Notes under the pieces: model-generated | The model's database searches: none | What the model saw: the letters and a program-made list of their open reading frames with translations, nothing else | What the model was told of the DNA's origin: nothing | NCBI GenBank assembly: GCA_032718475.1 | Contig: JAUCBJ010006694.1 | Location: 1-64,000 of the forward strand | Length of the DNA stretch: 64,000 nucleotides | DNA from: Nemertoderma westbladi | Taxonomy: Eukaryota > Animalia > Xenacoelomorpha | Direction of reading: 5' to 3' | Translations under genes and position numbers: made by a program | Shown here: piece after piece, positions 372 to 48,335 of the stretch | Layout of the letters: every line of letters begins with the position of its first letter | Position numbering within the stretch: position 1 is the first letter of the stretch

Positions 372-772
372 ATAAAGAACGGTTAGGAAGTAGGGGCAGC
401 CATAGCTGTAAGGTAAACCCCCATCTAAAGAATAAGTCGTACTACTGGGTTAGAACGCATACTACTTAACCATTTCGGAGTCTGCATGTCCTGTGGTTTA
501 TTTAGGCTTGATAGTAGTTTGCCAGCGTTTGGTCTGTACTTTGTTTGTGTAGCCTGTACGGGTAGCGTATAATTTATTTAGATAATTTGTAGGCTGGATA
601 GTTGTCTGGCTGTTGTTGGGTTTGAGGAAATTTCGGTGTGTGTGAAGCATCTGTCCGATAAAGAACGGTTAAGAAGTAGGGGCAGCCATAGCTGTAAGGT
701 AAACCCCCATCTAAAGAATAAGTCGTACTACTGGGTTAGAACGCATACTACTTAATCATTTCGGAGTCTGCA
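372..772 (+). repeat. Tandemly duplicated 5' UTR module (period about 286 bp; near-identical cores 372-486 and 658-772)
   Basis: ATAAAGAACGGTTA...GGAGTCTGCA occurs twice. An equivalent duplication is in B1 at about 29600-30006. Confidence 0.85.
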
Positions 773-3127: not shown

Positions 3128-3592
3128 TTAAATAACGGTAATAAAGTAAGTTAAAGTAACCAAGTAACCCTTAAAATTCAGAAATTCAATTATTCTAAAA
3201 TAATTGATATACCGGTATTTACAATAGGCTTATTATCTTTATTTTCATAAACTTAAGCTAAAATTACCTACCAGTATTCTGTAATTAATTCTAGTCTGTA
3301 ATTATACTTATATATATACATTATAAGCGTAAACTGCATACCGGTATTCACGATAGGCCTATTATATATTTATATATATTTGTGCTAAAATTACCTACCG
3401 GTATTCTGTGATAAACTAGTCTGTAATAATACTTATATATACTATAAGCATACCGGTATTCTAATATTATATATATCACGCTACACTGAGTAGCAGTATC
3501 GGTAATTAATTACTAGGCTAGCAGTTAACACTGAATTACTAGACTTGCTTAGACTGTAATATAGCAGTAGGCATTCAACTGTGTAAACAAAC

Positions 3593-12463: not shown

Positions 12464-15400
12464 ATGACTGAGTTGATAGAAGATGATCTTGGCATCAGGG
12501 AGCGATATACTCTACCTTTACAAGCGTTTGTCGATAGCTTGATACGCGGCGACGCTGGTCCAACTACTACGGAGGATGATGGTCGTTATATCGAACCGTC
12601 GATGTCCCCGGAGCAACTTACGCGTGAATTGGACTATAGAAAGTTCACCGCTCGCTATACGCATCGTAATGGTACGTATATGGACTTCTTAACTACCGGC
12701 CACCCTATCGATTTACACGATACGGACGATGTGGATACCGAAAGGGAAATGGTTTTATTTAAATATCATACCCAACGGAATCGGAACGATAAGCCAAGAA
12801 TAGAACACGAGAACTCTATTCGAAACCGACTCGAAAGAGAAGACGTTGAAGAACCGGATAAACGCAACGACTTCAACGATTATCTGGAATTCTTGAGAGA
12901 AACATACCTCAATATTGCCAGTCAACAAAATCTCGAAACTCGATATCCTCAAGGTATACATCATGATCCTATGATAGAACTCAAACGACTCTATTTCACT
13001 ATGATGTATCTTACCGCCGATCGACCGCTACCTGTTGTCCCAGATAGCTTCGAACAGATGGAGGAATATTGTAAAACTGGAGAACGATCACCCGCGTTTC
13101 CTCTGCAGGACATGCGTCTTTGGTATTACTGTGACGAATGCCCTAGACCCAATCAGCAAACGGAAAGACATAAACATCCGCGGAGACGTTGCGCTAAACA
13201 CAGTTTTACACGATATACTTACGGGAGTTTCGAGCGAAACCTGTTCGACGTGTCCCCTGCGGTCGCTCGACTCAAGCGATCCTTGAACGAACCGATGATC
13301 AGAGTTCCGGAATACTCGGTCAGACCTCCGCATTCCTCGGTTAGACCTCAAACTCTTGACCCTAATAGTATCACGGATCCTCCCGAACTGTACTCACTGT
13401 TCAAAGATCTAGTGTTACCCGAACAGTTGATCGGTGGCACTCCGGTAGTAGTCTCACGAGACATTCGCCAACCCTACCTAGCTGGACTGGGACGTGGTCA
13501 TCTAATATCGCCGTTTAACCCATACAACCGTCCCGGCTTCACCTCTATCCAACCCGTTACGGAAGTCGAAGAGAGCGTTGTACGAAACGCATTAGACGCT
13601 ATTCGGCAGAAAATCGGAAAGGGAACGTACGATTGTTTGGAGAAGCGTAAATTGCAGCAACAAGTCCAAGCGGTGAAGGAATTAGCTTTACCCCAGTTCG
13701 ATAGAGAAATACAAAATCTCGAGGAGGACATCGAACGTGGACGAACCTACTCTTTACAAGAGTTTCTAGATGAGCGTCTACAACAACAAGCAGAGGAGAA
13801 TCAGCTCGAGGAGAGACATATAGAACTGGATGAGAGAGAAGAAGCGGCTTTAGCTCAACCCGAAGCGCAAATCCTTATGACGGATCTCTACTCTAAAACC
13901 ATTCTTCATCCCTCGATGGTTCCCCATTTCGGAGACAAACTTTTTGCGACGGCACAACCCCAACCGGTTGATATCAACCTAAGATCTCGCGATCTTATCG
14001 CCGACGCTCCTCTGTTGCAGCGTCCGCCCATCGAACCCGCCCGTGTCGATGGTATACTCGTTGAACCTCCGGACAATAGAGCAGATCTTGTCCGTCGCAT
14101 GGTACACGATGTAAACATACGCGCTAGACCTTTACCGGACTCGTTTTATGGGATCAAAGATCACCCTTATTACGTCAATCTAAAACAATATTACATGGTA
14201 AAACCGGAAGATCCTACACATAGTCTGAAGTTTCTACCGTTAATAAATCCTCTCGATCTTGTCGAACTCGAACAACTGCAGAAACATCTGGATCAGTTAG
14301 TTAAAGTAAACTCGTTTCGAAAACCATATAATGTTTCCAGAATAGAGAAAGAAACAATACCTCCGTATAATCTTGATGGATTCATCAAAACTCGTTTAGT
14401 GCACTGGAATCTTGATGTGTTATTCGAGGAGGAAAGAATACAACGATATGGAGATGTGGAAACATATACCACACAATGTTTAAAGTATAAAGACCTGCCT
14501 AATGCTAGCGAATGTGCTACCTTGTGGCATCCTGTGGGAATGACACTCGAAAACGCCACTAAAGAGTGGAACGAAACTCTTAACGTTATCGAGATGTATG
14601 GAGTTGTCACTTACGATAACGAAGGTAGCGTTCCGGTTGGAGAACTTGGAACTACGCGGATGATACACATACGAGGACTCGCTGGTTCTACCCACGTATT
14701 TACTCGAGCGTGTTCCGACGTTATTGATTATTCTTTTGAAACTCTTACTGAGATACAAAAGAAACTCCGACATGGACAATTTGAACTCGCGCAGCTTTAC
14801 GTCACCGACACCGAGCGCAAGCCGGCCATGGGTATCGATGGATCGATGTTACCCCAACCCGTGCTCGAGATGCTGTTTAATGAAGGAATCCTTAAAATCG
14901 GCTCAGCTGTTTATGGAGACCTACAGAACGACTTTCGGAATATGGAGAACATTCCATACCCCTTCGTTGATACTCAGCTGATTGCTCCTTGGGCAGAAGG
15001 CCGAGGTTTCTTCCGCACTACGTATGCCAATACACCCAGCGGAATTACCAAAGTACAACGAACCTCCATCGGACATCTTGCCTTTCAAGAATACGGATGG
15101 AATTTCAAGGTTGGAAATCCTATAAATTACCAACAAGTATACGGAGATCATTATTCTCGTTTATACTTTGATGGACCATTGACCGCAACTGGCGCCGTGT
15201 ATAGCTTTATGAGTGTTCCACTTCGTCCCTCCTTAGCTATATACACGATCTTTGAAAACGCAGCACTTGCCGGTTGGCTAGCCGATGTGTGCAGCCGTAC
15301 CATACGCGCCCATCCCTTAATACTTGGAACCAAACTCGCCAAGTTAGATGAACACAATAAATTCATCCGCTTTGAATGTTTCAGGCGCTTTCTGACTCCG

Positions 15401-16717
15401 TTCCGTAACGTTGATAGTCAGTTCAAGGACCGCGCTCTGACCAAACTCAGCCTGAGAGACTCAGCGGCGGAGAAGCTAAATAGCGCGGGATTTGCCCTTT
15501 TTCAGGACGTTTGTATACAGAACTTGCACTCATCTGTTATACAAAGACCCCGAATACCCACGGGTTATTCTGTCGTCGAAGTTCAGACAGTGGGTCCGCT
15601 TGCGGAGACAGCCGCACCTACCTCAGCTATGCAATTGGAAGACGAACCAATATGCTTAGAAGCTGAAGCGATTCAGCCTACAGCGCCCCGGAGCAGCGAT
15701 AACGACTACGTCTTAGAGTGGTATCAAGGTCCACAATGTCTCACCGCATACGATTATCGACACGCTAACTATGTTTCTCGAAAACGTTGTCGATTATGCG
15801 CATCGAGAGACCATTTCACCCCTATGGACTCAGACGTACCCTGTTCCTATTTCCACGAACAACCAATGATGGAGATATATTGTGCGTATTGCAGACTTAA
15901 TAACTCTCATATTTTTGCAGTCTGCCCCCAATTTATGACTCAATGCCACCACTGTCAATTTAAAGGACATGCGAGTTATAATTGCCCCTTTAATCACGAT
16001 TTAGAGAGTGTAGATGAAATGATTACCCTGCGCTACATCCGAGCTTGGGAAGCTAACGCGGATTTACACTGTGAGTCCCGCCATCGATACTACCCTGGAC
16101 GCTCTTACGAGGGAGTTTACGCGTTCCATCCTTATTTATTAGCGTCTGTGGAACAAAAAACACGCATACCGAGTTACGAGCTAATGAAGCGTGTTGGTGA
16201 GTGTATTTCCACTAAATTTGTTAGAAGATACCTTAGGAACGTCAATCCTAACGATATTACTTCATACCATTTGATCAATTATATCCGTCAAGACCCTGAG
16301 TATGGCGATTTATTTATCAACTCGCACCCTGAGTTACAGGAAGTATCTCGACGGCCCTACGAATATCGAGCCCGAGAACGCGAGCTGGAAAGAACTATTA
16401 AACCAAGGAAGTTTCTCACCACTCACGGTCCGCCTACCGCCATTGCCCAGACAACCCGTCAAGGACCCGTAGGAGCTGCTGTCCTGAGGCGCGCCCTAAA
16501 GGCTGTTAGACCTCGCTCCACGGAAGTTGATATCGATCAACCAGGTATCTCGACCGGCGGATACACCGATCGCAATCCGAAACCTTCTGATGCAATTGTA
16601 TTGCACCCTTCACCCAGGAGTTACAGCCCTCCTAGTAAAGTGGCTCGCCCCAAAGAGAAAAGGACTCTTGCTAGCCTCAAAAAACTGCGTAAACGCCGTC
16701 CGCGTAAGAAAGACTAA
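12464..16717 (+). CDS. Extra ORF2 of the BEL/Pao element (1417 aa): putative DEDDy (WRN/EXD/RNase D-like) 3'-5' exonuclease, CCHC zinc knuckles, basic C-terminus; not env-like
   Basis: Uninterrupted 4.25-kb ORF between pol and PPT. ExoI-like VVTYDNE (D718/E720), ExoII-like LPQPVLEMLFNEGILKIGSAVYGD (D819), FVDTQ, ExoIII-like YTIFE (Y927/E931). Knuckles at C1109-C1174. KKLRKRRPRKKD terminus. No obvious signal peptide or TM segment. Confidence 0.75.
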   Translation: MTELIEDDLGIRERYTLPLQAFVDSLIRGDAGPTTTEDDGRYIEPSMSPEQLTRELDYRKFTARYTHRNGTYMDFLTTGHPIDLHDTDDVDTEREMVLFKYHTQRNRNDKPRIEHENSIRNRLEREDVEEPDKRNDFNDYLEFLRETYLNIASQQNLETRYPQGIHHDPMIELKRLYFTMMYLTADRPLPVVPDSFEQMEEYCKTGERSPAFPLQDMRLWYYCDECPRPNQQTERHKHPRRRCAKHSFTRYTYGSFERNLFDVSPAVARLKRSLNEPMIRVPEYSVRPPHSSVRPQTLDPNSITDPPELYSLFKDLVLPEQLIGGTPVVVSRDIRQPYLAGLGRGHLISPFNPYNRPGFTSIQPVTEVEESVVRNALDAIRQKIGKGTYDCLEKRKLQQQVQAVKELALPQFDREIQNLEEDIERGRTYSLQEFLDERLQQQAEENQLEERHIELDEREEAALAQPEAQILMTDLYSKTILHPSMVPHFGDKLFATAQPQPVDINLRSRDLIADAPLLQRPPIEPARVDGILVEPPDNRADLVRRMVHDVNIRARPLPDSFYGIKDHPYYVNLKQYYMVKPEDPTHSLKFLPLINPLDLVELEQLQKHLDQLVKVNSFRKPYNVSRIEKETIPPYNLDGFIKTRLVHWNLDVLFEEERIQRYGDVETYTTQCLKYKDLPNASECATLWHPVGMTLENATKEWNETLNVIEMYGVVTYDNEGSVPVGELGTTRMIHIRGLAGSTHVFTRACSDVIDYSFETLTEIQKKLRHGQFELAQLYVTDTERKPAMGIDGSMLPQPVLEMLFNEGILKIGSAVYGDLQNDFRNMENIPYPFVDTQLIAPWAEGRGFFRTTYANTPSGITKVQRTSIGHLAFQEYGWNFKVGNPINYQQVYGDHYSRLYFDGPLTATGAVYSFMSVPLRPSLAIYTIFENAALAGWLADVCSRTIRAHPLILGTKLAKLDEHNKFIRFECFRRFLTPFRNVDSQFKDRALTKLSLRDSAAEKLNSAGFALFQDVCIQNLHSSVIQRPRIPTGYSVVEVQTVGPLAETAAPTSAMQLEDEPICLEAEAIQPTAPRSSDNDYVLEWYQGPQCLTAYDYRHANYVSRKRCRLCASRDHFTPMDSDVPCSYFHEQPMMEIYCAYCRLNNSHIFAVCPQFMTQCHHCQFKGHASYNCPFNHDLESVDEMITLRYIRAWEANADLHCESRHRYYPGRSYEGVYAFHPYLLASVEQKTRIPSYELMKRVGECISTKFVRRYLRNVNPNDITSYHLINYIRQDPEYGDLFINSHPELQEVSRRPYEYRARERELERTIKPRKFLTTHGPPTAIAQTTRQGPVGAAVLRRALKAVRPRSTEVDIDQPGISTGGYTDRNPKPSDAIVLHPSPRSYSPPSKVARPKEKRTLASLKKLRKRRPRKKD

Positions 16718-16787
16718 CTGTTTAGAGTATTTTTATATTTTAGAAACTGAGATTTGTTATATTTTGTAGACTTAAATCCCATTTTCT

Positions 16788-16795
16788 GGGAGCGG
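16788..16795 (+). other. Short polypurine tract GGGAGCGG before the 3' LTR
   Basis: Directly abuts TGTAAAAG; the same motif abuts the 3' LTRs of B1 (38605-38612) and B2. Confidence 0.75.
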
Positions 16796-17962
16796 TGTAA
16801 AAGCTTTTGCGTCATTAACCGGTTATTTTCCCTTAAAGTACTCTGTAGTTGGTTTACCAGGCATAAAAAGGCCGTGTCCTTGCTGTACTGGTGTTTTAGA
16901 GGACATAAAAGTCATTTCCTCTGTATTTGTACTTTAGAGGACATAATCCGCAATCTCGTGACGCGATAAGCTGGATACTCTTGAAAACAGTGTCGCTACC
17001 ATGACGACGGCTAACAGCTGATATTGCCACGTCGACGTTTCTTCGTTTCTTTGTTCTCTCGTTGTTCGGTTGACCAATCAGAGCGTTTTTTGTCTCTGTG
17101 TTGGAGGTGTGTACAGAACTCAGTAGTTCAGTGTGTTATGTTTTTGCCCAGAGCCTAAGAACATCGGCTTTTGGCACCTCCGTATATCAGCATTCTTTAG
17201 CTTTACATTAGTAGGCTTAATTATAGAGCGTATATCTGTTATCAAACCAAATCATACCAAAACTCAGTTAACTCACTTAATAATCATTCATACCTTAACT
17301 TTGCTGCTTTTACTGTCGGTTATTCATTATATTGGTTGATGAAATATTATATCGGAATACTGATCAATAGTCAGACACCCCACCTTCTTGATATACTAAA
17401 GGTTAGAGAGACCGGTTACAGATAAACGATTGCGACCTATGTTAAGTGGTTTGCAGTGAATCTAATGCTATTTCATATGCCCAACATAAATTGTCTGTTG
17501 CTCTCTTTATACGTGACTAAATTTAGTGAAGGTCGGCAGATTAGTGTGCAGTATTGTGCAGCATTGTGTATGCGTGTAACTGATAACAAAGCATCTCCTA
17601 AAGAATGCGCCATATACGTGAATCTATAGCCTTTTCGTTGTGTCCAGTTTAAGTCATAACTCTGTTTACATATTTAGAGCGCCACGTCCTAAAGGAACTG
17701 TTAATATTTCCCGAAAGTGAATAATATTTGTCAGAGATTATATATTACGATCAGTCGAATAATACGGTAGGCTTACACCATCAATCATTAAGCTCCGAAC
17801 TCAGTCTCCCGGGTATATCCAACGGGTGAATGATTGCGCATAGACTGGCTTCGGCTAATGTAGTGTATCAAATACTCGTCATAGGCTAAAGACTATCTAT
17901 CATCCAAAAGACATTCTAATTTTGGCAGGTTAAACTGTCAAAGGTCTTCAAAAGCGCAAACA
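16796..17962 (+). repeat. 3' LTR of copy A (1167 bp)
   Basis: TG...CA termini. Homologous to B LTRs (CCAATCAGAGCG box, GGTCTTCAAAAGCGC end). Similarity stops at CA. Confidence 0.9.
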
Positions 17963-27984: not shown

Positions 27985-29242
27985 TGTAAAAGCTTCTGTG
28001 GGATATAACTGGCCCCTTTGCTTCGCAATCCAGTTTCCCCCCAGGCGCTGGAATACTCTAAAAGGGTTCTCTAACTGTATATATATTCCCCTCGCCCGCA
28101 AGGTACCGTTACAGGTGTTTTAACGGACATAAAAGTCATTCTGTTATATACGTGTTTTAGCGGACATGGTAAGGCAAAAAACCTGCAATGCACCAAATAC
28201 CTTTCACAGCTTAGCCGTGATGATTCACATTACGACATCTAACAGCTGGTTGCTGACATGGAAACAGCCATTGGACGCATGGTTCTTTGTTTGGCTTGAG
28301 CCAATCAGAGCGTTTTTTCCTGTCGACGTGTAGCTTTTCGGCCGATCATAAGGAGAGTGTTCAGTCTTACTGTTTTTTACTTGATACTTTGTTGTTATTG
28401 CTGTCTAAGCCAGAAACACCGGCTCTAGAGTTAATTCTTTTCATACTTTAAGAAGAAACATTAGTAGGCTTAAATTATAGAGCGTATGACTGTTATCAGT
28501 CAAATCCATTCACAATTCAATACTTTGTTGTTATTACTGTTCAACATACATTATTATACTGCTATTTACTGTTGTGTTTGGTTGAATATTATTTGGAGAA
28601 CATATATAAAGAACCCAAATTTCCCAATTTTCTTGATACACTACAGGTTAGAGAGACGGGTTATATATATAGCGATTGCGACTTATATTGTTGTGGTTTG
28701 TAGTGAATTTAATGCTATTTGATAAGCACTACATTGGTCCGTTGCTATTCCCTTTATATATGATAAAATACATTGACGGGCGGCAAATTAATGAGCAGTA
28801 TTGTGTGTTACCGGTAGTGTGCATGATTGTGACCGATAACTAAGCATTTCCTAAAGAATGCGCCTCATACGTGAATCTTAAGCCTTACCGACTTGCCGTT
28901 GTGATTAGTATAAGTCATATCTCTGTTTACTTAGATAGAGCGCCACGTCCTAAAGGAACTGTTAATATTTCCCGAAAGTAAATAATATTAGTCAGAAATT
29001 AATTATTAACGATCAATCGAATAATACAATACCGTAAGCTTCACTGCAATAATAATCTAAGCCGACAGAATCCAGCCTCCCGGGATTATCCAGCGGGTGA
29101 ATGGACGCGCACTAGGCTGGCTTCTGCTAATGTTGTGTTTATTGGTATTAAATATTTGTCATCTTCTAAAGTATATTTATAAATCAAAAGACATATAAAT
29201 TTTGGCAGGTTAAACTGCTAAAGGTCTTCAAAAGCGCGTACA
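27985..29242 (+). repeat. 5' LTR of B1
   Basis: TGTAAAAGC...GCGTACA; direct repeat of 38613-39870. Confidence 0.95.
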
Positions 29243-29253
29243 ATAACAGTCAT
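29243..29253 (+). other. Atypical primer-binding site ATAACAGTCAT, complementary to LTR 28486-28496
   Basis: Immediately follows the LTR-terminal CA. Exact reverse complement of ATGACTGTTAT. No TGG. Confidence 0.8.
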
Positions 29254-31413
29254 TGACTTTATTGCAGTAAGCAATAAAGTTGAAAGTACCGGTCAAAACC
29301 GGTACTTCTGTAGGTCTGTAGGCAGGTAGGCCCAACTGTCCTAACCGGTACTTCCAGTATAAGTACATTAGTATTATTTCGATTGTGATCTATAGTATAT
29401 TGTAGGCTACCAGAGGAATAGGGATTGATCACCCCTCATTCTTTTGTATAGTTTACTTATTTCTGTCAGTTTTATTTCCTAGTAAGTTAATATTGAGCTG
29501 AAGACGTGTAAGTCTGCTCAGATTGTTCAGATAATTGTAGGCCAGACTGTTGTCGGATTGTTGTTGAGTTTGGAGAGATTACGGCGTGTGTAGAGTTTGT
29601 CTGATAGAGTGCCGTTAGTAAGTTGGGGCAGCCATATGCTGCAAGGTCAATCCCCTCTTAAAGAATAAGTCGTACTACCGTGTTAGAACGCATACTAACT
29701 AACTATTTCAGAATCTGCATATACTGTAGTTTATTTAGGCTTGATCGTAGTCTGCCAACGTTTTGGCCTGTGTTTGTTTGTGTGGTCTGTTCAGGTACCG
29801 TAATAGTTATTGCTCAGATATTTTGTAGGCTGGATTGTTGTCTAGCTATTATTAGGTCTGAAGAGATTGCTGCTTGTGTAGAGTTGTCTGATAAAGTGCC
29901 AGTTAGTAAGTTGGGGTAGTCATAACTGTAAGGTCAATCCCCTCTTAAAGAATAAGTCGTACTACCGTGTTAGAACGCATACTAACTAACCGTTTTGGAA
30001 TCTGCACATACAGTAGTTTATTTAGGCTTGGTGGTAGTCTGCCAGCGTTTTGGTTTGTATTTGTTTGAGTATTCTGTACGGGTAGCGTAATATTTATTAT
30101 TCAGAGTTTATGCGATTATTCGCAACATTCATGTCCCCAAGTTTATTCCTACAGTAATTGTGCTTGTTATACATACCGTTATAGTTAAACTAACCCCGGT
30201 ACTACATCAGGGCTGCTCGGCGTAGGTAAAGACTGGAGATTTTGTGCTTCGGTCACTCCAGCAGATGCCGTGGTTCTTTTAACCATAGTATATTTAACTA
30301 CTGATTATTTGTTATACCGGTACTTGTACCTAATTTAGGGTTTAGTGTACAGTGCTTTCCGAAGTAATTAGTGTAGGCAGTATATTTGTGTTGTAAAGTG
30401 GTTGATAGGCACATTCGTTAGCTCTATTAGCTTCTGGGTAGGAACAATCCGTGATACATAACGTAGTACCTATAGCGATACGGTTATAGGTCGTCAGGCG
30501 GTGGTATTTTCCTATCTGGACAGTACAATATATTTACTACTACTTATTATTTCAAATACCGTAGTACCCTGTCCGTTGTAATAACCAGAATTCTAACCCT
30601 TTGTTAGGCTGGTTTGTAGACTTCCTGTAAAATTACCCTAAAAATTTCGTACGTAATATTTTGTTGTGTTTAATTAGAGAATTAATCTCACCCGTATCGT
30701 AAGTAATTTGTAGTATTAAGTAACTTAGGTAAATTAGAATTATCAGTTTTAGTGTCAAATAAATAGCACTTCACTGAGAGGCGTTCAGCTTCTGTGTAGT
30801 GACTCCCCCAGAAATAATAACATTTATTTCAAATATTGACAAAAAACCCATTTAAACGGGTATATATCTATTATAAATCAACTCAAACGATTTATAAATA
30901 GTAGGCCTGCCAGACAACAACTAGGTCTCAATATCAGTTGGACTGCTGCTTAAATAACGGTAATAAAGTAAGTTAAAGTAACCAAGTAACCCTAAAAATA
31001 TTCAGAAATTCAATTATTCTAAAATAATTGACATACCGGTATTTACCATAGGCTTATTATATTTATTTCTATAAATTTGAGCTGAAATCATACCGGTATT
31101 CTGTAATTAATTCTAGTAATAATTATACTTATATATACTATAAGTGTCAGCTGTATACCGGTATTCACGATAGGCCTATTATATATTTATATATTTGTGC
31201 TAAAATTATATACCGGTACTCTGTGACAAATCTAGTCTGTAATAGTACTTATATATATATTATAAGCATACCGGTATTTTAATATATTATATATATATCA
31301 CGCTACACTGAGTAGCAGTATCGGTAATTAATTATTAGGCTAACAGTGATACTGAATTACTAGACTTGCTTTAACTGTAATATAGCAGTGGGCATTCGAC
31401 TGTACAATCAAAC

Positions 31414-34400
31414 ATGGCTGACACAAGGCAAACTCTGTCAGATAGTCTTTTAGAAACAACAGCCTGTTTCTCAGATCAAAGTGTAGAGAATCCCAGACCG
31501 AGGTCTGAGACCCCTCCTACTGTAAGAAGGGCAACCCCTGCAGTAGTTGTGTCAGAACCTAGGTTGGTAGAAGCGATTTCGCAATTTGCGAAGTTAGTGA
31601 AGCGCCGTAGGTCTGCCATAGGCACTCGGGCCCAAGTTAAGCGGGATCAGGAAGCAGCTGTCAAACAGCAGCGACATCCTAGCCAAGAACCTAGTTCCCA
31701 GCAGCCCGATAGCTCCAGTAGTTCGGAGACTGTTGAGCGGACGCCCGAACGCGGAGCGAAGATGGCGGATACGGTTTATGATGAGCGGCCAACCTTTGAA
31801 GAATCAACCGACGCCACTTCTTCTCAAGTGGAAAGCGAAGTGGAAAGCGAAGTGGAAAGCCAAGTGGAAAGCGAAGTGGAAAGTGAAGTGGAAAGCGAAT
31901 TAACAGCAGCAGAGAAGCCACGAACTAGAGATGCCATTGACATCTATCTGTCAGACTATCAGCGATTCGTAGGAGACGAAGAGTTGAGGAGACGACTGTC
32001 TGGACTTCGCCCTAATAGTGAAGGAACCAAGCTTGTGTTAGACGCAATCGATGCGGAAATGTTAGCTGCAAACAAAGCTAAATTTGATGAACAACTCCGC
32101 ATCACTAGAGTCCAAGAAGAACAAGTAAGGGGAAAACTAATCGAAAGCAGAAAGACAGCAGCAGCGGCAGTGGCAGAAGCAGACAGAAAGGCGGCAGAAG
32201 CAATGGCAGAAGCAGACAGAAAGGCGGCAGAAGCAATAGCAGAAGCAGACAGAAAAGCGGCAGCGGCAGTGGAAGCAGCAAAAGCAGCAGCAGCAATGGC
32301 ATTGGCAGAAGCAGAACAGAGAGCGTCTGAAGAGACCACCCAAATGGAGTTGGAAAATCTTCAAGAGACGCAAGACAGCATAAATAAACAGTTAACTGCT
32401 AGTCAAATGCAGATGATGAGTCGATCTACTCCCAAACGCCAAGGATACACATCATCGGAGGAAGGCGAGACCACCGATCCTGAAGGCAGAGGAAATAGAT
32501 CTCGTCTCAGTAGGCGTAGAAAGACATCTCACCGTCATAAATTGCCCGATTTGCCCCCCGCTGTTAGAAGACAAATAGCTAGCACAGACTTAAGTAGTAC
32601 AGAACCCACAGACCAAATTATTACCGTAAATAGACTCCCTACTATAGTAGATGAGCCTGAAATAATTAGGCCTGTCGTTCCCAAAGTCACTTCTGTGTTA
32701 GAGACCCCTGTACTTCCAGAGCTTAACTCTAAATTCCCTTTACATAGTACTACACTGCCTGTACCCGGTGGAACAGTCCAAGAGAATATCCCTGTCCAGA
32801 TAGCAGAGAGAGAAATCAATAATTTGTCTCCCGTCGTCCCGCGTCAGCCCGCTACTATGTTGGCGACTCCCGCTTCGGCGGTTGAGTGGGTGGAAGAGGG
32901 ACGGCGGGGGATGAATCTCCTGCTAGGACAGATGCAGGAGACTGTCCACCAACTTAAGGGAACAGTGAGGGAAGGTAGAGCAGAGTTGCAAGAAGTGCAG
33001 CAAAGTATCGCGCTAGAACGCGATAAATTAGTCAATATCCAAAAGGGCATACCAATACCCCCTGTAACACCTGTAACCCTGTAACCCCCCTGTAACCCCC
33101 TGTTAGGTCTGAAGTATTACATGCGCAAGGTGTGGAGCCTACACGCATCTATACTGCTAGTGAAGTTGAAACTCCTATAGCAAACTCTATTAAGGGTGAT
33201 TATAGACCTGTTATTAATGATATTCCCTATAGACCTGATAATGATCCGAGAAATTTATATACCGATAATTCGATATTAAATAACACGATGGCCCAAGAAA
33301 GCTTTACGCGTCAGATGGCTAGAACAGAAGCCCGCCAAGCGGTCAAAGTGGGAGAGATCGTCAAATTCAATGGAGATGAGATGAAATGGTTACCTTTCAA
33401 CGAATATTACAAAGATAGCATACAGAACTCTGTACTATCTAACGGAGAGAAACTTAGATTCCTCATCAAGTGCTTGGAAGGACCTCCCAAGTTAATGGCG
33501 TTAAAGTTTATTGGACATCCAGATGGATTAAGACAAGTTTGGGATACATTAAACATCAGGTATGGTAACAAGGATAACATAGCTAAGTATTTGTATGCAA
33601 AATTAGTAGCCCCCCGACACTTCCTTAGTAGCGGGATTATAGAGTTTTCCGATGAGATTCAGGAAATCTGTAGACAATTGGACTGGTTAGGTAAGTCTCA
33701 TGAATATCAGAGTTCCATGGTTATTGGAGCCGTAGTCTCTACTTTACCAAAGGGTGGAGTATGTACGCGCTGGGACAAGAAAGTGTTGTACATGAATGAA
33801 CAACAACAACGAAGTCCTACCATGGCTGATCTCATGTCTTTCTTAGATAGTGAAGTAAAATTACAACTCATAAGGCAGTCCAGAGAGAAAACATCGGAAA
33901 ATAAGGTAAGTGAGAAACCCGTTTCTAGGAGAAGGATAATACCAGTGTGTTATACTGACGACGGCGAAAGCCAAGCTTCTCAAGAAGAGGACAGCGGGAA
34001 AGACACAGCAAATTCTTACTATGACAACAAGAACTATAAAGACGTAAGTAAACACAAGTCTCGAACCAGTGACAGGAGAGAACAGGTAACAACAACTCCT
34101 CCTACGTCTCCTAAGAGAATTCACGGAAGAAAGCCCGAAGAAAGAACGAGAGTGCAGAACGTTAACCAAGTTAAGGTGAGTAACATCAAACCAAAATGTG
34201 CGCTGTGCGACGGGCCCCACCGTTTGAGTGCGTGTGCAGAATTCCTAAAGAAATCCATGGCAGATAGACGTGGAGTCCTGTGGGATAAGCGGTTATGTTA
34301 TAACTGTCTCAGACGCGGACACCAGCGGCGAACCTGTTACTCTGACGCAAGGTGTGCTAAGTGCGGCGCGAAACATCATAGCTTGTTGCACACGGAATTC

Positions 34401-35627
34401 GAACGAAACAGCCCGAGTCAGGTAAGTGAGCCCAAATCACATGTCCAATTCAGTGATGTGAACGACACTGACCAAAGTTCTGAGTGGGAAGGATTCTATA
34501 CGGACGAATTCTCCGATGCCAACGAATCCTGTTATCTAATAAATACCGCAGTGTATCGAGCACTTACTTACGAAAAGGACATCAACGATGAGTTTCCCCC
34601 AACTACTTTCGCCAAACAACCATCTTGGAAAGCTCCAGCTTCCAACGTAGGAATCAGAGAATTTCCTGTAGTTCAAGTAAGAGTTCACGGTCTTAACAAA
34701 AGCTACATAGTGAACGCCCTCCTTGACTCCGGCAGCACAGGAACATTCATCGATCAAGAACTAGCCGAAGATATCTTTGCTGGACAACCCAAGTTCCGGA
34801 CTAAATTGAATATGTCAGGAATTATGCAGGTTTGGAAATCTACCCTAACGGTAGATTACTATGTAGGTGTGTTGTCCACCCCCCAGGATAAGTTAGGAAC
34901 ACAAGGTATAAGGTCAGTAAAAATGGTGGCCATAAAGAACTTTGCTACTACTCAAGCAGAACCTTATAACTGGGACGAGGACGAGTGCATCCAACATCTT
35001 GAGATACCTCGATTCCAAACCGATTATCCTGGAGTGCAAATCCTCATCGGCCAAAACGCGCATGAGGCGCTCGAGACATTGGAGAAACGGCCTGCTCAAC
35101 CGCAGCCATTACAAACTTATGCGGTAAGAACTAGAGTAGGTTGGTACTTCACTGGCCCTTCCCGTAGAACTCTCAAAGAGAGATTACCTCAACAACAGGT
35201 ATACCAAGTAAAGGGGGAAGTGGAGAGCAGTGATGTGGACGATCCAACTGAGGGAACACCATACTCCTCAGATAATGACGATATTAACTCCAATGTAGAT
35301 CAATGGAGACATTGCCTTGGGACGATTAATCCAGCCGACATCGATTCCAGAGGAGCAACTCCTCAAGAACTGATAGATACTCCAGGCTGGTTAGGTGGAT
35401 CCGACTCCTTAAGTAAGGAAGAAGAAGAATGGCCTCCTCATCTTACCACGGCAGAAATTAGACAGGCCAAGGGAGCGGAGAAAGTAACACAACAACTCAA
35501 TCGCCCAGCTAGTCGTTTATGTTTACTGGAAAGAGACCGAAAACTGTCCGGAAACTATGGAAGGCAAGATACTCTTCCTACGACTACTTCCCTAATCCGA
35601 CAAATATCTAGGGACTCCATAACGTGA
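31414..35627 (+). pseudogene. gag-protease remnant of B1
   Basis: Deletion in gag, (VESE)n expansion at about 31828-31898, frameshift in CCTGTAAC repeats at about 33060-33105, and two large pol deletions (about 35290 and 35485). Confidence 0.9.
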
Positions 35628-37255
35628 TAGCATGTGGAGTGGGCGTGTGACTATATCATTTTATATTTGTTTTTATTTTATATTTATGTATGTATTATTA
35701 TGTAATTTTATTATAATCGTTTTCTTTAATTTTATTTAGTAGAATGTTATTTTAGAGATTATTTAGTAGATTAGTGCAATATATTAGTGTTTATTACGTA
35801 TGTAATTACTTATAATATATATTTAGTGCGACGGCGAGAAATAATTATTTTTCTCTTTCCTTACTGTCCGTATCATATTATAAATACGTGACTACAGTAA
35901 GATGAAATGTCCGTACTTATTAAAGTACAATAAAGCCGCTACTATATTTAAGTATTATTGGTAGGCAGAGTATTAGGAATGCAAAGTTCAGATCCTCGTG
36001 TCTCGGCTAAACCAAGCTCTGTGTAGACCTTGGAAACGACTTGCCTCTTCACACTGACATTGCTTCGTGCGATATTGCTCTTCTACCTTATAACAAATAA
36101 TACATATAGTAGCGTGATGTCCCTCTAACAGTAGCGTAGATCGCAAATAAATCTGTTAAACCTTTTGACCATCTGTAATTCTAGTCGATTAAGATATCGC
36201 GGCACCCACCGATATACTTGAAAGACAAATTCTAGAATCAGTGGTTAACGTCCCCAGACAAGTTCTGGAATAAATCGGTGCCCATCTTAAATATTAATTT
36301 AATATTTATTAAAATCTGTAAAATTCAGATCCTTTAAAATTTCTAGTCAATTAAGATATCGCAGCACTTACCGATACTCTTAAAAGACAATTTTATAGAA
36401 TTAAGGATCCTAAGTCCCCAGACATGCTCTGGAATAAAAATTGTGTCAAATTTAACATCAAATAATAAAATTCACGGGAATAAATTTAAATTCATATTTT
36501 AAATTAATTTCATAAATTGTCATTTTGTGCAATTTATAACATTCTCAAAATTCCATTAATTAATAGATCATGGGAGCGGAGATTCATCCTATTGAGTGTA
36601 TTAGAGTGCGAGAATCTCCAACATATAGTCAATAGCCGATAAAATTAATAAAATCATGTATAAAGAGGATATTGACAATTAAAGAATTACTATTAAATAG
36701 CATTCCAGATCTGTATGCATGAGAATTACCCTAATTCTACCGCTAGCATTCCATAATGTCACCATAGCAACACCCACGCTAGAATTAGAAGCAAGTTAAG
36801 AAAACAATAGAAAGCTTGTCACATTGCATAGCATAGAGAATATAGCACACTGTTAGTATCCAAGGATACACAGTAATAACGTGACATTCTGGAAGGCACT
36901 GACTAACGGACAAATGGCCTGTATGTGTACAATTGGTGACAGTTGTGTGGAATTTGTGCGTTTATAGGTGAATGTTACTGCTAAGGTGTGTTTACAGTAG
37001 CTAGTCGCAATTGTGAAAGTAACCCAACTCTCCTATAGAAAGAACCTAAAGTGGATTCAAGCCTTTGGGACGGACAGTGGAGTGACTTGTGCCGGTTATC
37101 GTTGTCGTACTGTTGCTACATGTTGGCGTAAACACCGCGACAACGGTACATCGGCGCTGAGGATCCCACTGTCCGGGGGCAAAGAGAGGTAGGCAGCGAC
37201 GTCCGCTCGCCTAAACATAAACTCATTTCGATATTAACAAACTCAGATAGCAGAT

Positions 37256-38534
37256 ATGACGGAGTTGATAGAAGATGATCTTGGTATCAGGGAGCGATAT
37301 ACTCTACCTTTACAAGCATTTGTGGATAGCTTGATACGCGGTGAAACCGATCCAACCATTACGGAGGACGATGGTCGTTATATCGAACTGCCGACGTCCC
37401 AAGAGCAACTTATGCGTGAATTGGACTATCGAAAATTCACCGCTCGCTATACGCATCGTAATAATACGTATATGGACCTCCTAACTACCGGCCATCCTAT
37501 CGATTTACATGATACGGACGATGTAGACACCGAAAGGGAAATGGTTCTATTTAAATATCATACCCAGCGGCGTCGTAACGATAAATCGAGAATAGATCAC
37601 GAAAATTCTATTCGTAACAGACTGGGAAGACGAACCAATATGCCTAGAATCTGAGGAGATTCAGCCTATCGCGCTCGGAACAGCGACAACGATTACATCC
37701 TGGAATGGTATCAAGGTCCACTGCGTACGATTATCGCCATGACAACTGTGTTTCTCGGCAACGTTGTCGGTTATGCGCATCGAGAGACCATGTTACGCCC
37801 ATGGACACAGACGTCCGCTGTTCCTATTTCCACGAACAACCGGCGATGGAAATTTATTGCGCGTATTGCAGATTTAATGATTTGCACGTTTTTGCGGTTT
37901 GCCCTCAATTTGTGACTCAATGTCACCATTGTCAACTGGGGGGACACGCCAGTTTCGATTGCCCTTTTAATCGCAATTTGGAGGGCGTGGATGAAATGAT
38001 CACACTACGTTACATTAGAGCTTGGGAAGCGAAGGCTGATTTACATCGTGATTCGCGCCATCGCTATTATCCTGGACGCGCTTACGAAGGAATTTATGCG
38101 TTCCATTCTTATCTATTCGCTTCTGTCGAACAGAAATCACGCATATCGAGTTACAGGAAGTATATCGACGGCCTTACGAGTACAGAGCCCGCAAATGCGA
38201 GTTGGAAAGAACCATTAAACCAAGGAAGTTTCTAACTGCCTATGGTCCACCCACGGCCCTCGTTCAGACCACTCGTAAAGGACCCGTAAGAGCGGCTGTC
38301 TTGAAACGAGCTCTCAAAGCCGTTAGACCCCTCTCACCTGACGTTGATGTCAATCAACCCGGTACTTCGACTGGCGGATACACCGACCATAATCCTACAC
38401 CCTCTGATGCAATCATATTGCACCCTTCACCCAGGAGTTATAGCCCTCCTTGTAAAGTGGCTCGCCCCAAAGAGAAAGGGACTCTGGCTAGCTTTAAAAA
38501 ACTGCGTAAACGCCGTCCGCGCAAGAAAGACTAA
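37256..38534 (+). pseudogene. ORF2 remnant of B1 (exonuclease region deleted)
   Basis: N-terminal ~123 codons joined out of frame to the zinc-knuckle C-terminus, with further small deletions. Confidence 0.9.
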
Positions 38535-38612
38535 CTGTTTAGAGTATTTACGTATATTAGAAACTGTGATTTTGTATATTTCATAGACTCAAATCCCATT
38601 TTCTGGGAGCGG

Positions 38613-39870
38613 TGTAAAAGCTTCTGTGGGATATAACTGGCCCCTTTGCTTCGCAATCCAGTTTCCCCCCAGGCGCTGGAATACTCTAAAAGGGTTCTCT
38701 AACTGTATATATATTCCCCTCGCCCGCAAGGTACCGTTACAGGTGTTTTAACGGACATAAAAGTCATTCTGTTATATACGTGTTTTAGCGGACATGGTAA
38801 GGCAAAAAACCTGCAATGCACCAAATACCTTTCACAGCTTAGCCGTGATGATTCACATTACGACATCTAACAGCTGGTTGCTGACATGGAAACAGCCATT
38901 GGACGCATGGTTCTTTGTTTGGCTTGAGCCAATCAGAGCGTTTTTTCCTGTCGACGTGTAGCTTTTCGGCCGATCATAAGGAGAGTGTTCAGTCTTACTG
39001 TTTTTTACTTGATACTTTGTTGTTATTGCTGTCTAAGCCAGAAACACCGGCTCTAGAGTTAATTCTTTTCATACTTTAAGAAGAAACATTAGTAGGCTTA
39101 AATTATAGAGCGTATGACTGTTATCAGTCAAATCCATTCACAATTCAATACTTTGTTGTTATTACTGTTCAACATACATTATTATACTGCTATTTACTGT
39201 TGTGTTTGGTTGAATATTATTTGGAGAACATATATAAAGAACCCAAATTTCCCAATTTTCTTGATACACTACAGGTTAGAGAGACGGGTTATATATATAG
39301 CGATTGCGACTTATATTGTTGTGGTTTGTAGTGAATTTAATGCTATTTGATAAGCACTACATTGGTCCGTTGCTGTTCCCTTTATATATGATAAAATTCA
39401 TTGACGGTCGGCAAATTAGTGAGCAGTATTGTGTGTTACCGGTAGTGTGCATGATTGTGATTGATAACTAAGCATTTCCTAAAGAATGCGCCTCATACGT
39501 GAATCTTAAGCCTTACCGACTTACCGTTGTGATTAGTGTAAGTCATATCTCTGTTTACCTAGATAGAGCGCCACGTCCTAAAGGAACTGTTAATATTTCC
39601 CGAAAGTAAATAATATTAGTCAGAAATTAATTATTAACGATCAATCGAATAATACAATACCGTAAGCTTCACTGCAATAATAATTTAAGCCCTCAGAATC
39701 CAGTCTCCCGGGATTATCCAGCGGGTGAATGGACGCGCACTAGGCTGGCTTCTGCTAATGTTGTGTTTGTTGGTATTAAATATTTGTCATCTTCTAAAGT
39801 ATATTTATAAACCAAAAGACATATAAATTTTGGCAGGTTAAACTGCTAAAGGTCTTCAAAAGCACGTACA
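38613..39870 (+). repeat. 3' LTR of B1
   Basis: Follows the PPT; TG...CA; direct repeat of the 5' LTR. Confidence 0.95.
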
Positions 39871-40459
39871 ATAACAGTCATACGCTCTATAATTTAAGCC
39901 TACTAATGTTTCTTCTAAAAGTATGAAATGAATTGACTCTAGAGCCGTTGTTTCTGGCCTAGACAGCAATAACAACAAAGTATCAAGAAAAAACAGTAAG
40001 ACTGAACACTCTCCCTATGATCGACCGAAAAGCTACACGTCGACAGGAAAAATCGCTCTGATTGGTTCAAGCCAAACAAAGAACCATGCGTCCAATGGCT
40101 GTTTCCATGTCAGCAACCAGCTGTTAGATGTCGTAATATGAATCATCACGGCTAAGCTATGAAAGGTATTTGTCGCATTGCAGGTTTTTTGTCTTACCAT
40201 GTCCGCTAAAACACGTATATAGCAGAATGACTTTTATGTCCGTTAAAACACCTGTAACGGTACCTTGAGGGCGAGGGGAATATTTATACAGTTAGAGAAC
40301 CTTTTTAGAGTATTCCAGCGCCTGGGGGGAAACTGGATTGCGAAGCAAAGGGGCCAGTTATATCCCACAGAAGCTTTTACACCGCTCCCAGAAAATGGGA
40401 TTTGAGTCTATAAAATATACAAAATCACAGTTTCTAATATACGTAAATACTCTAAACAG

Positions 40460-41908
40460 TTAGTCTTTCTTGCGCGGACGGCGTTTACGCAGTTTTTTAA
40501 AGCTAGCAAGAGTCCTTTTCTCTTTGGAGCGAGCCACTTTACAAGGAGGGCTATAACTCCTGGGTGAAGGGTGCAATATGATTGCATCAGAGGGTGTAGG
40601 ATTATGGTCGGTGTATCCGCCAGTCGAAGTACCGGGTTGATTGACATCAACGTCAGGTGAGAGGGGTCTAACGGCTTTGAGAGCTCGTTTCAAGACAGCC
40701 GCTCTTACGGGTCCTTTACGAGTGGTCTGAACGAGGGCCGTGGGTGGACCATAGGCAGTTAGAAACTTCCGGGGTTTAATGGTCCTTTCCAACTCGCGTT
40801 CGCGGGCTCGGTATTCGTAAGGCCTTCGATGTACTTCCTGCAACTCGGGATGTGAGTTAACAAACAAGTCTCCATAGTCCGGATCCTGACGGATATAATT
40901 GATTAAGTTATAGGAATGAAGGTCGCTAGGATTAACACTCCTGAGAAATTTGCGTACGAATTTAGTTGAAATACATTCTCCGACGCGCTTCAGTAGCTCG
41001 TAACTCGATATGCGTGATTTCTGTTCAACAGAAGCGAATAGATAAGGATGGAACGCATAAACTCCTTCGTAAGCGCGTCCGGGATAATAGCGATGGCGCG
41101 AATCACAATGTAAATCAGCGTTCGCTTCCCAAGCTCTGATGTAACGTAGTGTGATCATTTCATCTACGCTTTCCAAATCGTGATTAAAAGGGCAATCGAA
41201 ACTGGCGTGTCCCTTTAGTTGACAATGGTGACATTGAGTCATAAATTGAGGGCAAACCGCAAAAACGTGCAAATTATTAAATCTGCAATACGCGCAATAA
41301 ATTTCCATCGCCGGTTGTTCGTGGAAATAGGAACAGCGGACGTTTGTGTCCATGGGCGTAACATGGTCTCTCGATGCGCATAACCGACAACGTTGCCGAG
41401 AAACATAGTTGGCATGGCGATAATTGTACGCAGTGAGACACTGTGGACCTTGATACCATTCTAGGATATAATCGTTGTCGCTGTTCCGGGCGCGATAGGC
41501 TGAATCTCCTCAGATTCTAGGCATATTGGTTCGTCTTCCCAGTCTGTTACGAATAGAATTTTCGTGATCTATTTTCGGTTTATCGTTACGACTCCGCTGG
41601 GTATGATATTTAAATAGAACCATTTCCCTTTCGGTGTCTACATCGTCCGTATCATGTAAATCGATAGGATGGCCGGTAGTTAGGAAGTCCATATACGTAC
41701 CATTACGATGCGTATAGCGAGCGGTGAATTTTCGATAGTCCAATTCACGCGCAAGTTGCTCTTGGGACATCGGCGGTTCGATATAACGACCATCGTCCTC
41801 CGTAATGGTTGGATCGGCTTCACCGCGTATTAAGCTATCCACAAATGCTTGTAAAGGTAGAGTATATCGCTCCCTAATACCAAGATCATCTTCTATTAAC
41901 TCCGTCAT
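40460..41908 (-). pseudogene. ORF2 remnant of B2 (same exonuclease deletion; zinc-knuckle C-terminal frame still open)
   Basis: ORFs 41510-41908 and 40460-41353 match the ORF2 N- and C-termini. Confidence 0.9.
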
Positions 41909-42369
41909 ATCTGCTATCTGAGTTTATTAATATCAAATAAGTTTGTATTTAGGCGAGCGGGCGTCGCTGCCTACTTTTCTTTGCCCCCGGACAGTGGGAT
42001 TCTCAGCGCCGATGTACCGTCGTCGCGGTGTTTACGCCAACATGTAGCAACAGCACGACAACGATAACCGGCACAAGTCACTCCACTGTCCGTCCCAAAG
42101 GCTTGGATCCACTTAGGTTCTTTCTATAGGAGAGTTGGGCTATTTTTACAATTGCGACTAGCTACTGTAAACATACTTTAGCAGTAACATTCACCTATAA
42201 ACGCACAAATTCCACACAACTGTCAACAACTGCACACACACAGGCCATTTGTCCGTTAGTCAGTGCCTTCCAGAATGTCACTTTATTACTGTGTATCCTT
42301 GGATACTAACAGTGTGCTATGTATTCTCTATGCTAGGCAATGGGACAAGCTTTCTATTGTTCTTTTAAC

Positions 42370-43905
42370 GTTCGCGCTATTCATTAATGATTTAGAGGCG
42401 GAACTACGGGATGGAGGAATTCAGGGCCTGGATGTAGGTGCGCTCAAACTTTTCCTGTTACTTTATGCTGATGATATCGTGTTGGTTAGTGAAAGTATTA
42501 GTGGACTACAGGGTGCACTCGATATCCTTGGTTGCTATGCCGACTATTGGGGTTTGCGGGTTAACATGGACAAGTCCAATATTATGATTTTTAAAAACGG
42601 TGGGAATCTTGCACAGCGTGAACGGTGGACTTTCCACAATCGTGAACTCAAAATTGTCTCTGACTATACTTACCTAGGAGTAATATTTTCTCCCTCTGGC
42701 GGATTCAGGAAAGCGGAGTGTTCTCTTGCAGAGAAGGCCTCTAAAGCATATTTTGTACTCTTAAAATATTTTTCGAAATTCCCAAACATTTCACTGAGCT
42801 TAAAAGTTCATATCTTCAATACACTTGTGAAACCGATCCTGGAATATGGAAGTGAAATCTGGGGTTTCCACAGCGCTCCAGAGTGCGAACGAGTTCAACT
42901 TAAATTTCTAAAACGGTTATTGGGGGTAAAGTCAGGAACACCTAACTTCATGAGTTATGGTGAAACTGGAGTATTCCCGCTAGCATTGTCTAGGGAAATT
43001 CGTATAGTAAAATATTGGATTAAAATTATTAATTTACCAGACTCGCGTTTAGTCAAGCAGGCGTATCTTATGCTACTTCAGGACTGTCTGACTTTCAATG
43101 ACAGTAACTGGGTTTCTGGTGTGCGCGATCTGCTTAATAAGTCTGGTAAAAGTTGGGCGTGGGTCAACCAGTCGGTCAGCTGTAATAAAATGTTTATTAA
43201 ATCTCTAGAACGTACATTACAGGATAACTTCATCCAGTCTTGGTGGAGTGCGATAGAAAATTCTCCCAAGGGAATTTGGTATTTCAAGAGGGTGTTTGGG
43301 GCAGAAAACTACTTAAACTCACTTAGTGGTTACCCTACACTGTGTAAGACTGTGAGCCGCCTAAGGTGTTCCTCACACGATCTACAATTTGAATACGGAC
43401 GTTGGCATAATGTACCGCGTAACGATAGATTATGCCAGCTCTGTAACCTCCAAGAAGTGGAGGATGAATACCACTTTGTACTTAAATGTCCGCTCTATCA
43501 TGATCTACGCATTAAATTTTTGGCAGTAAGATATCATAGAAATCCTTCATCGGTCAAATTTCTTGAACTCCTCAGTCTGACGTCGGATTCCAAAATTAAG
43601 CAGTTTGGTGTGTTTTTATATCACGCCTTTAAATTACGACTGGAGGCTAAAACCTAGTTAGTACGTATTACGTGTGTTGAATGTTTGTGGTGTGAGTATG
43701 TGTTGGTAGTTCTTCGGTTTAGGTTGTTATTATGTAGATATAATATATATTATGTTCCTACTTTACGCACTGGGTTCACCTATGTATTTCTTTTCTAAAT
43801 GTATTTGTACTCCGGTATTGTAGCGTGCAGTTGATACTACATACTTTGCTCTCAACAATAGCCTTAATTGGCTTGTTGTGATTAACAATAAACATTATAA
43901 CATTA
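42370..43905 (+). mobile_element. 5'-truncated RTEX-like LINE inserted in B2
   Basis: LLYADD, YTYLG, LEYGSEIWG, C-terminal RLRCSSH...CQLC...EDEYHFVLKCPLY; stop at 43657. AATAAA plus (AACATTAT)2 tail. TSD TTTAAC at 42364-42369 and 43906-43911; other copies show the empty site. Confidence 0.88.
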
Positions 43906-45073
43906 TTTAACTTGTTTCTAATTCTAGCGTGGGTGTTGCTATGGTGACATTATGGAATGCTAGCGGTAGAATTAGGGTAATTCTCATGCATACAGATCTG
44001 GGATGCTATTTAGTAATAATTCTTTAATTGTCAATATCCTCTTTATGCATGATTTTGTTAATTTTATCGGCTATTGACTATATGTTGGAGATTCTCGCAC
44101 TCTAATACACTCAATAGGATGAATCTCCGCTCCCATGATCTATTAATTAATAGAATTTTGGGAATGTTATAAATTGTACAAAATGACAATTTATGAAATT
44201 CATTTAAAATATGAATTTAAATTTATTCCCGTGAATTTTATTATTTGATGTTAAAATTGACACAATTTGATTCCAGAGCAGGTCTGGGGACATAGGATCC
44301 TTAATTCTATGAAATTTGTCTTTTAAGAGTATCGGGAAGTGCTACGATATCTTAATCGACTAGAATTGTTAACGGATCCGAATTTTACAGATTTTAATAA
44401 ATATTAAGTTAATATTTAAGATAGGCACCGATTTATTCCAGAACTTGTCTGGGGACGTTAACCACTGATTCTAGAATTTGTCTTTCAAGTATATCGGTGG
44501 GTGCCGCGATATCTTAATCGACTAGAATTACAGATGGTCAAAAAGTTTAACAGATTTATTTGCGTTTTACGCTACTGTTAGAGGGACATCACGCTACTAT
44601 ATGTATTATTTAATATAAGGTAGAAGAGCAATATCGCACGAAGCAATGTCAGTGTGAAGAGGCAAGTCGTTTCCAAGGTCTACCCAGAGCTTGGCTTAGC
44701 CGAGACACGAGGATCTGAACTTTGCATTCCTAATACTCTGCCTACCAATAATACTTGAATATAGTAGTGGCTTTATTGTACTTTAAGAAGTACGGACATT
44801 TCATCTTACTGTAGTCACGTATTTATAATATGATACTGACAGTAAGAAAAGAGAAAAAATTATTTCTCGCCGTCGCACTAAATATATATTATAAGTAATT
44901 ACGTACGTAATAAACACTAATATATTGCACTAATCTACTAAATAATACTAAAATAACATTCTACTAAATAAAATTGAATAAAAACGATTATAATAAAGTA
45001 CATAATAAAGTTCGCATGTAAAAATATAATAAAATAGATAAAACAATATAGTCATACACCCACTCCAGACGTA

Positions 45074-48000: not shown

Positions 48001-48335
48001 AGTCTCGGTTATCATTCGCAGTGGTTCGCACCACGGAGCAGGCGTTGGAAGGGCTTGATATGATCCCAAAAGCCTGGATGGTCATCCAGTACTCTACCGG
48101 TTTCTGGTTGAGGTCTCCTTCAGGCCACCACAGAAATCTCAGGCTATCTCTATCTCTATCCAGCGCCTTGACTTGTAAGAACATTCCTTCTATATCAGAG
48201 GCGAACGCGATGGAATATTGTCTTAATCTTAATAGTATTCCCAACAAAGATTGGAGTAAGTTGGGTCCTGGTAACAACTCGGAATTGAGGGATTGGCCCA
48301 TATATAGAGCAGAGCCATCAAATACGACTCGTACT
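45074..48335 (-). CDS. Open RT-RNase H-integrase portion of BEL/Pao pol (B2), 5'-truncated
   Basis: YMDD; Pao RNase H motifs VFGDAS, PRAEL, YWTD, NPADIASRG; full integrase. The only copy here with complete RNase H. Confidence 0.9.

Follow-up and report, generated by a model that had tools for sequence, protein, structure and literature searches.

According to the ICTV profile, the Belpaoviridae (Semotivirus) carry an 18-nt primer-binding site (PBS) for tRNA-Arg or tRNA-Gly and are primed by a host tRNA, and their replication is called poorly understood (PMC8742986). Tf1 uses its own RNA as the primer, the 3' end of which is made by RNase H, according to the accessible part of PMC7175516, and it requires a three-duplex pretzel, according to that of a preprint (bioRxiv 10.1101/2022.12.06.519325). 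Self-priming has also been predicted for Tcn1 and for the copia TAR lineage (Houba, Osr-1). That prediction rests on a match of at least 10 nt between the post-LTR site and the LTR, which is the same kind of evidence as ours; TAR and Tcn1 are, however, plant copia and gypsy elements, and no spliced form or fold-back joint is described in the part of the paper accessible to us (PMC6317226). In the fungal GalEa copia elements, the tRNA PBS is likewise replaced and a hairpin adjoins the LTR end. In the accessible text its authors found no LTR complement to the hairpin site, whereas the elements described here have one (PMC5445492).

We found no report of self-priming in BEL/Pao in the open literature searched, which comprised main texts; subscription papers, Repbase Reports and GyDB were outside the search. 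The terms 'PBS' and 'tRNA' are absent from the main text of PMC554778, PMC3118150, PMC6238403 and PMC8556966, and 'PBS' and 'self-prim' are absent from PMC2774666 and PMC12440569. The accessible parts of PMC3601003, PMC5445492, PMC8220671 and PMC5443660 contain nothing on BEL priming.

Elements in the window and their primer-binding sites

The window, which is the whole stretch of 64,000 nt of Nemertoderma westbladi DNA that was analysed, contains four pieces of one LTR family: copy A (1-17962), copy B1 (27985-39870), the inverted arm D (39871-48335) and copy C (49040-60505) (Table 1). Every copy is defective. RNase H is missing in A, both RT and RNase H are missing in B1, and C has neither its own 5' end nor most of U3. 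The 3' end of B1 continues into arm D. No target-site duplication was found in the window: the 5' flank of B1 and the 3' flank of C do not match, and the 5' flank of A lies outside.

Table 1. Positions of the features in the window.
Feature	Position	Strand	Basis or remark
Copy A PBS	1..11	+	exact complement of 17232-17242
Copy A internal region, RNase H deleted	12..16795	+	
Copy A gag-pol, in pieces	3587-10832	+	
Copy A ORF3, 1,428 aa, after pol	12431-16717	+	
Copy A 3' LTR	16796..17962	+	
LTR 11-mer, A type, predicted self-primer	17232..17242	+	
B1 5' LTR, TG...CA, 1,258 nt	27985..29242	+	
A/B-conserved block directly 5' of LTR 11-mer, putative core promoter	28458..28485	+	
LTR 11-mer, B type, predicted self-primer	28486..28496	+	exact complement of B1 PBS
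Hairpin near U5 end, retained in A, B1 and C	29200..29223	+	
B1 PBS, offset 0 from LTR end	29243..29253	+	pairs with 28486-28496
Hairpin directly 3' of B1 PBS	29255..29281	+	A: different-sequence hairpin at same place
B1 internal region, without RT and RNase H	29254..38612	+	
B1 gag-like ORFs	31381-33084 and 33096-35627 (DUF1759)	+	
B1 polypurine tract	38603..38612	+	identical to A's
B1 3' LTR, hybrid	38613..39870	+	contains 11-mer at 39114-39124
PBS 11-mer 3' of B1 3' LTR, first 11 nt of arm D; fold-back joint	39871..39881	+	
Inverted arm D: U3, PPT, ORF3 end, integrase, RNase H, part of RT	39871..48335	-	
LINE-like RT fragment inserted in arm D	~42370-43905		
Copy C internal region	49040..59696	+	
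Copy C pol: RT, RNase H (Peptidase_A17), integrase zinc finger	51974-55984	+	
Copy C 3' LTR, U3 mostly deleted	59708..60505	+	11-mer at 59729-59739

The elements contain the Pfam families DUF1759, Peptidase_A17, Integrase_H2C2 and DUF5641, and copy C has the RT-RH-IN motif order. PF05380 was present in 120 of 120 homologs among the matches listed, the best of which had about 41% identity. The TG...CA LTRs of about 1.2 kb, the polypurine tract (PPT), the order of gag and then PR-RT-RH-IN, and the position of an extra ORF are common with the Belpaoviridae, whereas the internal region of copy A exceeds the 4.2-10 kb range given for them (PMC8742986). By these sequence traits, the elements are BEL/Pao (Belpaoviridae). 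The initial annotation had assigned them to this superfamily and had stated that its members are generally described as tRNA-primed; the domains and homologs bear out the former and the ICTV profile the latter. The 18-nt tRNA-Arg/tRNA-Gly PBS is absent from the window's elements, which we read as a gap in the ICTV description and not as exclusion from the superfamily.

In B1, ATAACAGTCAT (29243-29253) adjoins the terminal CA of the 5' LTR, and its reverse complement stands without mismatch at 28486-28496. Copy A has ATAACAGATAT at 1-11, whose reverse complement likewise stands without mismatch in the 3' LTR, at 17232-17242. Neither pairing can be extended on either side by even one base, and no TGG, i.e. 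no tRNA-type PBS, is found 3' of the LTR in the window's elements. Both differences between the PBSs of A and B1 are mirrored in their LTR partners. The exact 11-nt complement after the B1 LTR, the lack of a TGG-type PBS there and the compensatory changes in copy A, all of which the initial annotation had pointed out, were thus reproduced.

In dinucleotide-shuffled LTRs the 11-mer was present by chance in 9 of 20,000 cases for B1 and 30 of 20,000 for A, and only 2 of 2,117 and 1 of 3,565 other leader 11-mers had an LTR partner. Divergence between A and B is 17% (45/260) in the leader and 21% in R-U5. The chance of the PBS changing at just the two mirrored sites to complementary bases is about 6e-4 assuming independence, with the caveat that the sites are adjacent and possibly reflect a single event. 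Duplex energies are -12.4 and -10.5 kcal/mol for the matched partners versus -6.2 and -5.8 kcal/mol for the swapped ones. The self-complementarity between PBS and LTR is real and far beyond chance.

The 5' LTR of copy A lies outside the window, which begins at the first PBS base; A 1-40, however, aligns with B1 from 29243 onward. In two contigs of run X1, a third PBS variant directly adjoins an A-like LTR end; its first 7 nt are the same and its last 4 different. The contigs do not cover the LTR partner of this variant and are unable to show RNA starts. Because its last 4 nt are changed, this variant is not explained by a fixed tRNA. No tRNA was found in the window. For a splice-made primer, the window's own LTRs gave at most 3 nt with canonical sites. 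The pattern search of viral contigs yielded 29 pattern matches, none of which is a relative. A search for ribozymes and known RNA families in 27900-31400 gave only mir-1545 (E 0.81), which was rejected. About 42 bases inside R-U5 (28920-29000 and 17676-17730) are identical between A and B; this run, the best-covered part in run X1, had no Rfam match.

Putative priming sites in related elements

A metagenome scan gave 79 related loci, many of which share contig-name prefixes and may represent few hosts. Thirty-seven loci with a direct repeat were inspected, and 16 had a definable 5' LTR end. The 54 loci outside the test comprise 42 without a direct repeat (or with a tandem one, L037) and 12 without a usable LTR boundary. 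Among the 25 testable loci, 20 have a self-complementary PBS of 10-15 nt, contiguous in 5 and across a predicted LTR splice junction in 15, whereas 2 have a tRNA-type PBS and 3 neither.

When the LTR end was defined, a self-match of 10-15 nt started 0-4 nt after the LTR in 12 of 16 loci. It is contiguous in L045, L059, L064 and L067, and spans a predicted LTR intron, whose donor is GTAAGT-like and whose acceptor is pyrimidine-rich, in L004, L011, L012, L013, L022, L030, L040 and L057. L063 and L069, the positive controls, have a TGG tRNA-type PBS and no self-match; L023, the LTR end of which is uncertain, and L049 have neither type. As nulls, matches of at least 10 nt were found in 6 of 300 pairs formed across families, not counting three related pairs, and in 2 of 234 downstream windows. 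A blind scan of nine more loci, in which only the LTR start is known, placed the best match after CA in eight (seven spliced, one contiguous) and found none in L076; for these loci the match itself was used to place the LTR end, and the non-reversed control reached at least 10 nt in 4 of 15 loci. In validation, the blind scan placed the LTR end correctly in 4 of 6 loci, gave nothing for L063, as expected, and missed L004, whose start coordinate was guessed.

With L007, L041 and copy A left out as near-identical, there are 19 families, in which the match length is 10-15 nt with a mode of 11 (9/19), as in Tf1. Each of the 18 related families pairs with its own LTR by a different sequence, and L059 and L067 differ from each other by a mirrored PBS/LTR change of their own. 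In the 8 spliced-type loci checked, only 6-9 nt of the match are contiguous in DNA; the pairing is therefore a property of the RNA, if the predicted introns are real. None of these 8 PBSs has a TGG within 5 nt. The insertions L030 and L045 are intact and flanked by 5-bp target duplications. L004, L012 and L026, which are related families, have a common predicted exon junction and PBS core, with introns of about 165, 140 and 365 nt.

The RT-RH tree (FastTree, unrooted) has 81 rows. Loci of the spliced and of the contiguous type are scattered over it, a group with 99% support unites L063 and L069 with two untyped rows, and the window's lineage forms a long branch. Since it is unrooted, the tree gives no order of events. 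As judged from these sites, self-priming is spread across the sampled BEL/Pao tree and is not particular to the window's lineage. The initial annotation had proposed that self-priming evolved independently in one BEL/Pao lineage. Its first half gained from the 20 relatives and from the fold-back joint described below, but an invention in one lineage is at odds with self-complementary PBSs all over the tree, inside which the only two tRNA-type elements stand together. The match between post-LTR and LTR sequences that it had suggested looking for in relatives was present in most of the testable ones but not in the two tRNA-type loci and the three with neither type.

If self-priming is true, none of the three classical LTR superfamilies is without it, it accounts for many 'no PBS' elements of BEL/Pao, and PBS-based annotation needs a self-match test that allows for splicing. 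Since contiguous, spliced and tRNA types are mixed among the relatives, switches of priming mode are testable.

The fold-back joint at 39870/39871

The PBS 11-mer occurs again at a place that the initial annotation had not mentioned. Directly after the end of the B1 3' LTR, it runs unbroken into the reverse complement of the sequence 5' of the LTR 11-mer. Arm D then goes back through U3, PPT, ORF3, integrase and RNase H into RT, covering 8.4 kb of element. The joint, which is new here, is in exact register with the 11-nt pairing. With 18 differences from the adjoining U3 in 511 sites and an insertion of its own, arm D is not a read fold-back.

The two LTRs of B1 have no differences in the first 762 nt and 16 in the last 496 (p 3e-7). 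Arm D diverges by 3.5% from B1 and by 1.0-2.0% from copy C (101/6,170 sites), and the 3' part of the hybrid LTR differs from C at 8 of about 496 sites. Arm D and this part of the LTR are both about 1.6% from C, as expected if they were made at one time. We infer that a single aberrant element gave rise to the LTR end, D and C, and that B1 was joined to it later by LTR-LTR recombination.

A plus strand ending after exactly 11 PBS bases would be a natural intermediate of an 11-nt self-primer. Arm D may be a mis-priming product, in which such a strand crossed to the 11-mer of a plus-sense template still carrying U3. A packaged RNA would have supplied this template with its 3' LTR copy, and synthesis would have run back through the element. 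Alternatively, the plus strand may have read into a primer that originated in the 3' copy of the LTR. An origin of arm D in reverse transcription is only somewhat favoured, because the joint can also come from repair at an 11-bp inverted repeat and the LTR deletion in copy C has a repair-type filler; for this joint alone, a DNA-level origin is a serious contender at a little below even chances. In the reverse-transcription reading, the joint would be a genomic trace of the pairing in use.

The U3 deletion of copy C (59696-59714) stops about 21 nt 5' of the 11-mer, and the short filler there repeats nearby bases, resembling templated end-joining. The stretch 48336-49500, between arm D and the gag of copy C, has no match to A or B1.

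Proposed priming step and rival explanations

We propose, with a probability of roughly 0.8, that element-derived RNA primes minus-strand DNA in these BEL/Pao elements. The 11-nt PBS would replace the tRNA site, and the LTR 11-mer of the element's own RNA would anneal to it and prime the minus strand. A predicted RNase H cut at the 3' end of the 11-mer would free the primer, by analogy with Tf1, and in the geometry found here the primer 3' end falls at the LTR edge. RT and RNase H would be supplied in trans, since A and B1 have lost one or both of them. On the sequence, it is about as likely as not that the 5' end of the RNA is at the 11-mer or close to it. With such a start, plus-strand synthesis would copy the 11 nt and then stop. 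Because the plus strand would copy the primer, the PBS would be re-copied in each cycle and the A/B covariation would be automatic; a PBS that tracks changes of the LTR 11-mer would fit the covariation in every family.

There are weak hints of a defined start site at the 5' edge of the primer, namely the sharpness of the match length, a pyrimidine-purine step that falls on position 1 or 2 of the match in 14 of 19 families (background 0.45, p 0.012, post hoc), an A at -2 relative to the self-match in 16 of 19 (the window's B1 has G there) and, in L011, the TATA TATATAAG at -31. A TATA stands in the expected place in only 1 of 19 families, and B1 has none at -36 to -23.

The elements resemble Tf1/Tf2 of the Tf1/sushi group (Ty3/gypsy chromoviruses), as far as the accessible accounts describe these, in that they have no tRNA PBS and an 11-nt LTR segment is complementary to the site after the 5' LTR. 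Unlike that group, they have BEL/Pao domains, no detected pretzel and relatives with predicted splice junctions; their Pfam families are BEL/Pao-specific, and no chromodomain match was found. The flanking duplexes of the Tf1-type pretzel were not found in B1 or A, where 59, 18, 38 and 88 of 100 shuffles do as well. A and B alike have a hairpin at the end of U5 and another immediately 3' of the PBS. Folding of B1 28486-29340 predicts a local hairpin for the 11-mer, so that the primer:PBS helix is disfavoured, with a probability of about 0.002 and a cost of 5.6 kcal/mol. It is likely that these elements work like Tf1 self-priming but outside the Tf1/sushi group and without a detectable pretzel.

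Self-priming may also use a primer that is internal or taken from the 3' copy, a variant contained in our main reading. The RNA would then start upstream of the 11-mer (e.g. near 28364 or 28160) or downstream, and the primer would be the 3' end of a longer fragment or be made by two cuts. This is possible but somewhat doubtful. It would spare the spliced relatives first exons of 4-9 nt, which they would need if the primer started the RNA, and it fits the TATA of L013 at -133 and two motifs conserved in B1/A, CCAAT (-185/-158) and CATAAAAG (-358/-328); moreover, arm D would be the expected outcome of read-through into a primer still joined to U3. However, the matches end sharply near 11 nt, which a capped 5' end explains simply, and a long primer would probably leave an unpaired 3' flap at the second strand transfer. 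A different reading is that the pairing forms a structural or regulatory helix for folding, dimerisation or packaging, while a host RNA primes elsewhere or a tRNA fragment does so. There are several conserved hairpins in U5 and the leader, and the invariant 7 nt of the PBS presumably resemble the tRNA-Asn anticodon loop, at 6 positions. We consider this unlikely, as the site is exactly where a primer must end, the related families match their own LTRs by sequences of their own, the spliced-type PBSs checked have no nearby TGG, and the tRNA-type L063 and L069 have no self-match.

The complementarity may also be a by-product of DNA-level events such as fold-back, templated repair or LTR-leader conversion, with no role in priming. 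The locus is indeed heavily rearranged, with a hybrid LTR, a fold-back arm and deletions in every copy. Nevertheless, this is very improbable, since the match of 15 relatives exists only across the predicted exon junction, which DNA templating cannot produce, and L030 and L045 are intact. Least probable of all, and hardly to be expected, is a chance match or an assembly artefact. It would draw on the AT-rich 11-mer, the 1.2-kb LTR and the start of the window exactly at the PBS of A, but it is opposed by the shuffle and cross-family nulls and by the differences and the insertion that separate arm D from the adjoining U3.

Tentatively, and at less than even odds, self-priming may be usual and possibly ancestral across much of BEL/Pao, with the primer mostly built by splicing of an LTR intron. 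With splicing, the inverted repeat formed by primer and PBS would be hidden in both the DNA and the unspliced 3' copy; intron-less families would pay in mis-priming, of which 39870/39871 would be a fossil, and tRNA priming would have been regained inside the group.

The extra ORF of copy A, ORF3, had as its top Atlas match a 3'-5' exonuclease and zinc knuckle cluster (score 0.86, low recognition). The zinc knuckle match has an E-value of 0.0012. One distant homolog (E 7e-5) was found, whose own exonuclease match is sub-threshold (E 0.2), and a PDB sequence search gave no match. The predicted folds are of low confidence (pLDDT 31 and 29), and the central 2.8 kb of ORF3 is missing from B1, C and D. 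The exonuclease/zinc knuckle identity is a lead only; such a product could trim a primer end. The leader of copy A also contains nested inverted repeats (2068-2838) that are absent from B1. Between copies A and B1 lies an ADAR-like host gene (19901-23811, + strand) with long exons, two dsRNA-binding motifs and an adenosine deaminase domain. LINE-like pieces at 24948-26117 and 62831-64000 are two copies with 97% identity.
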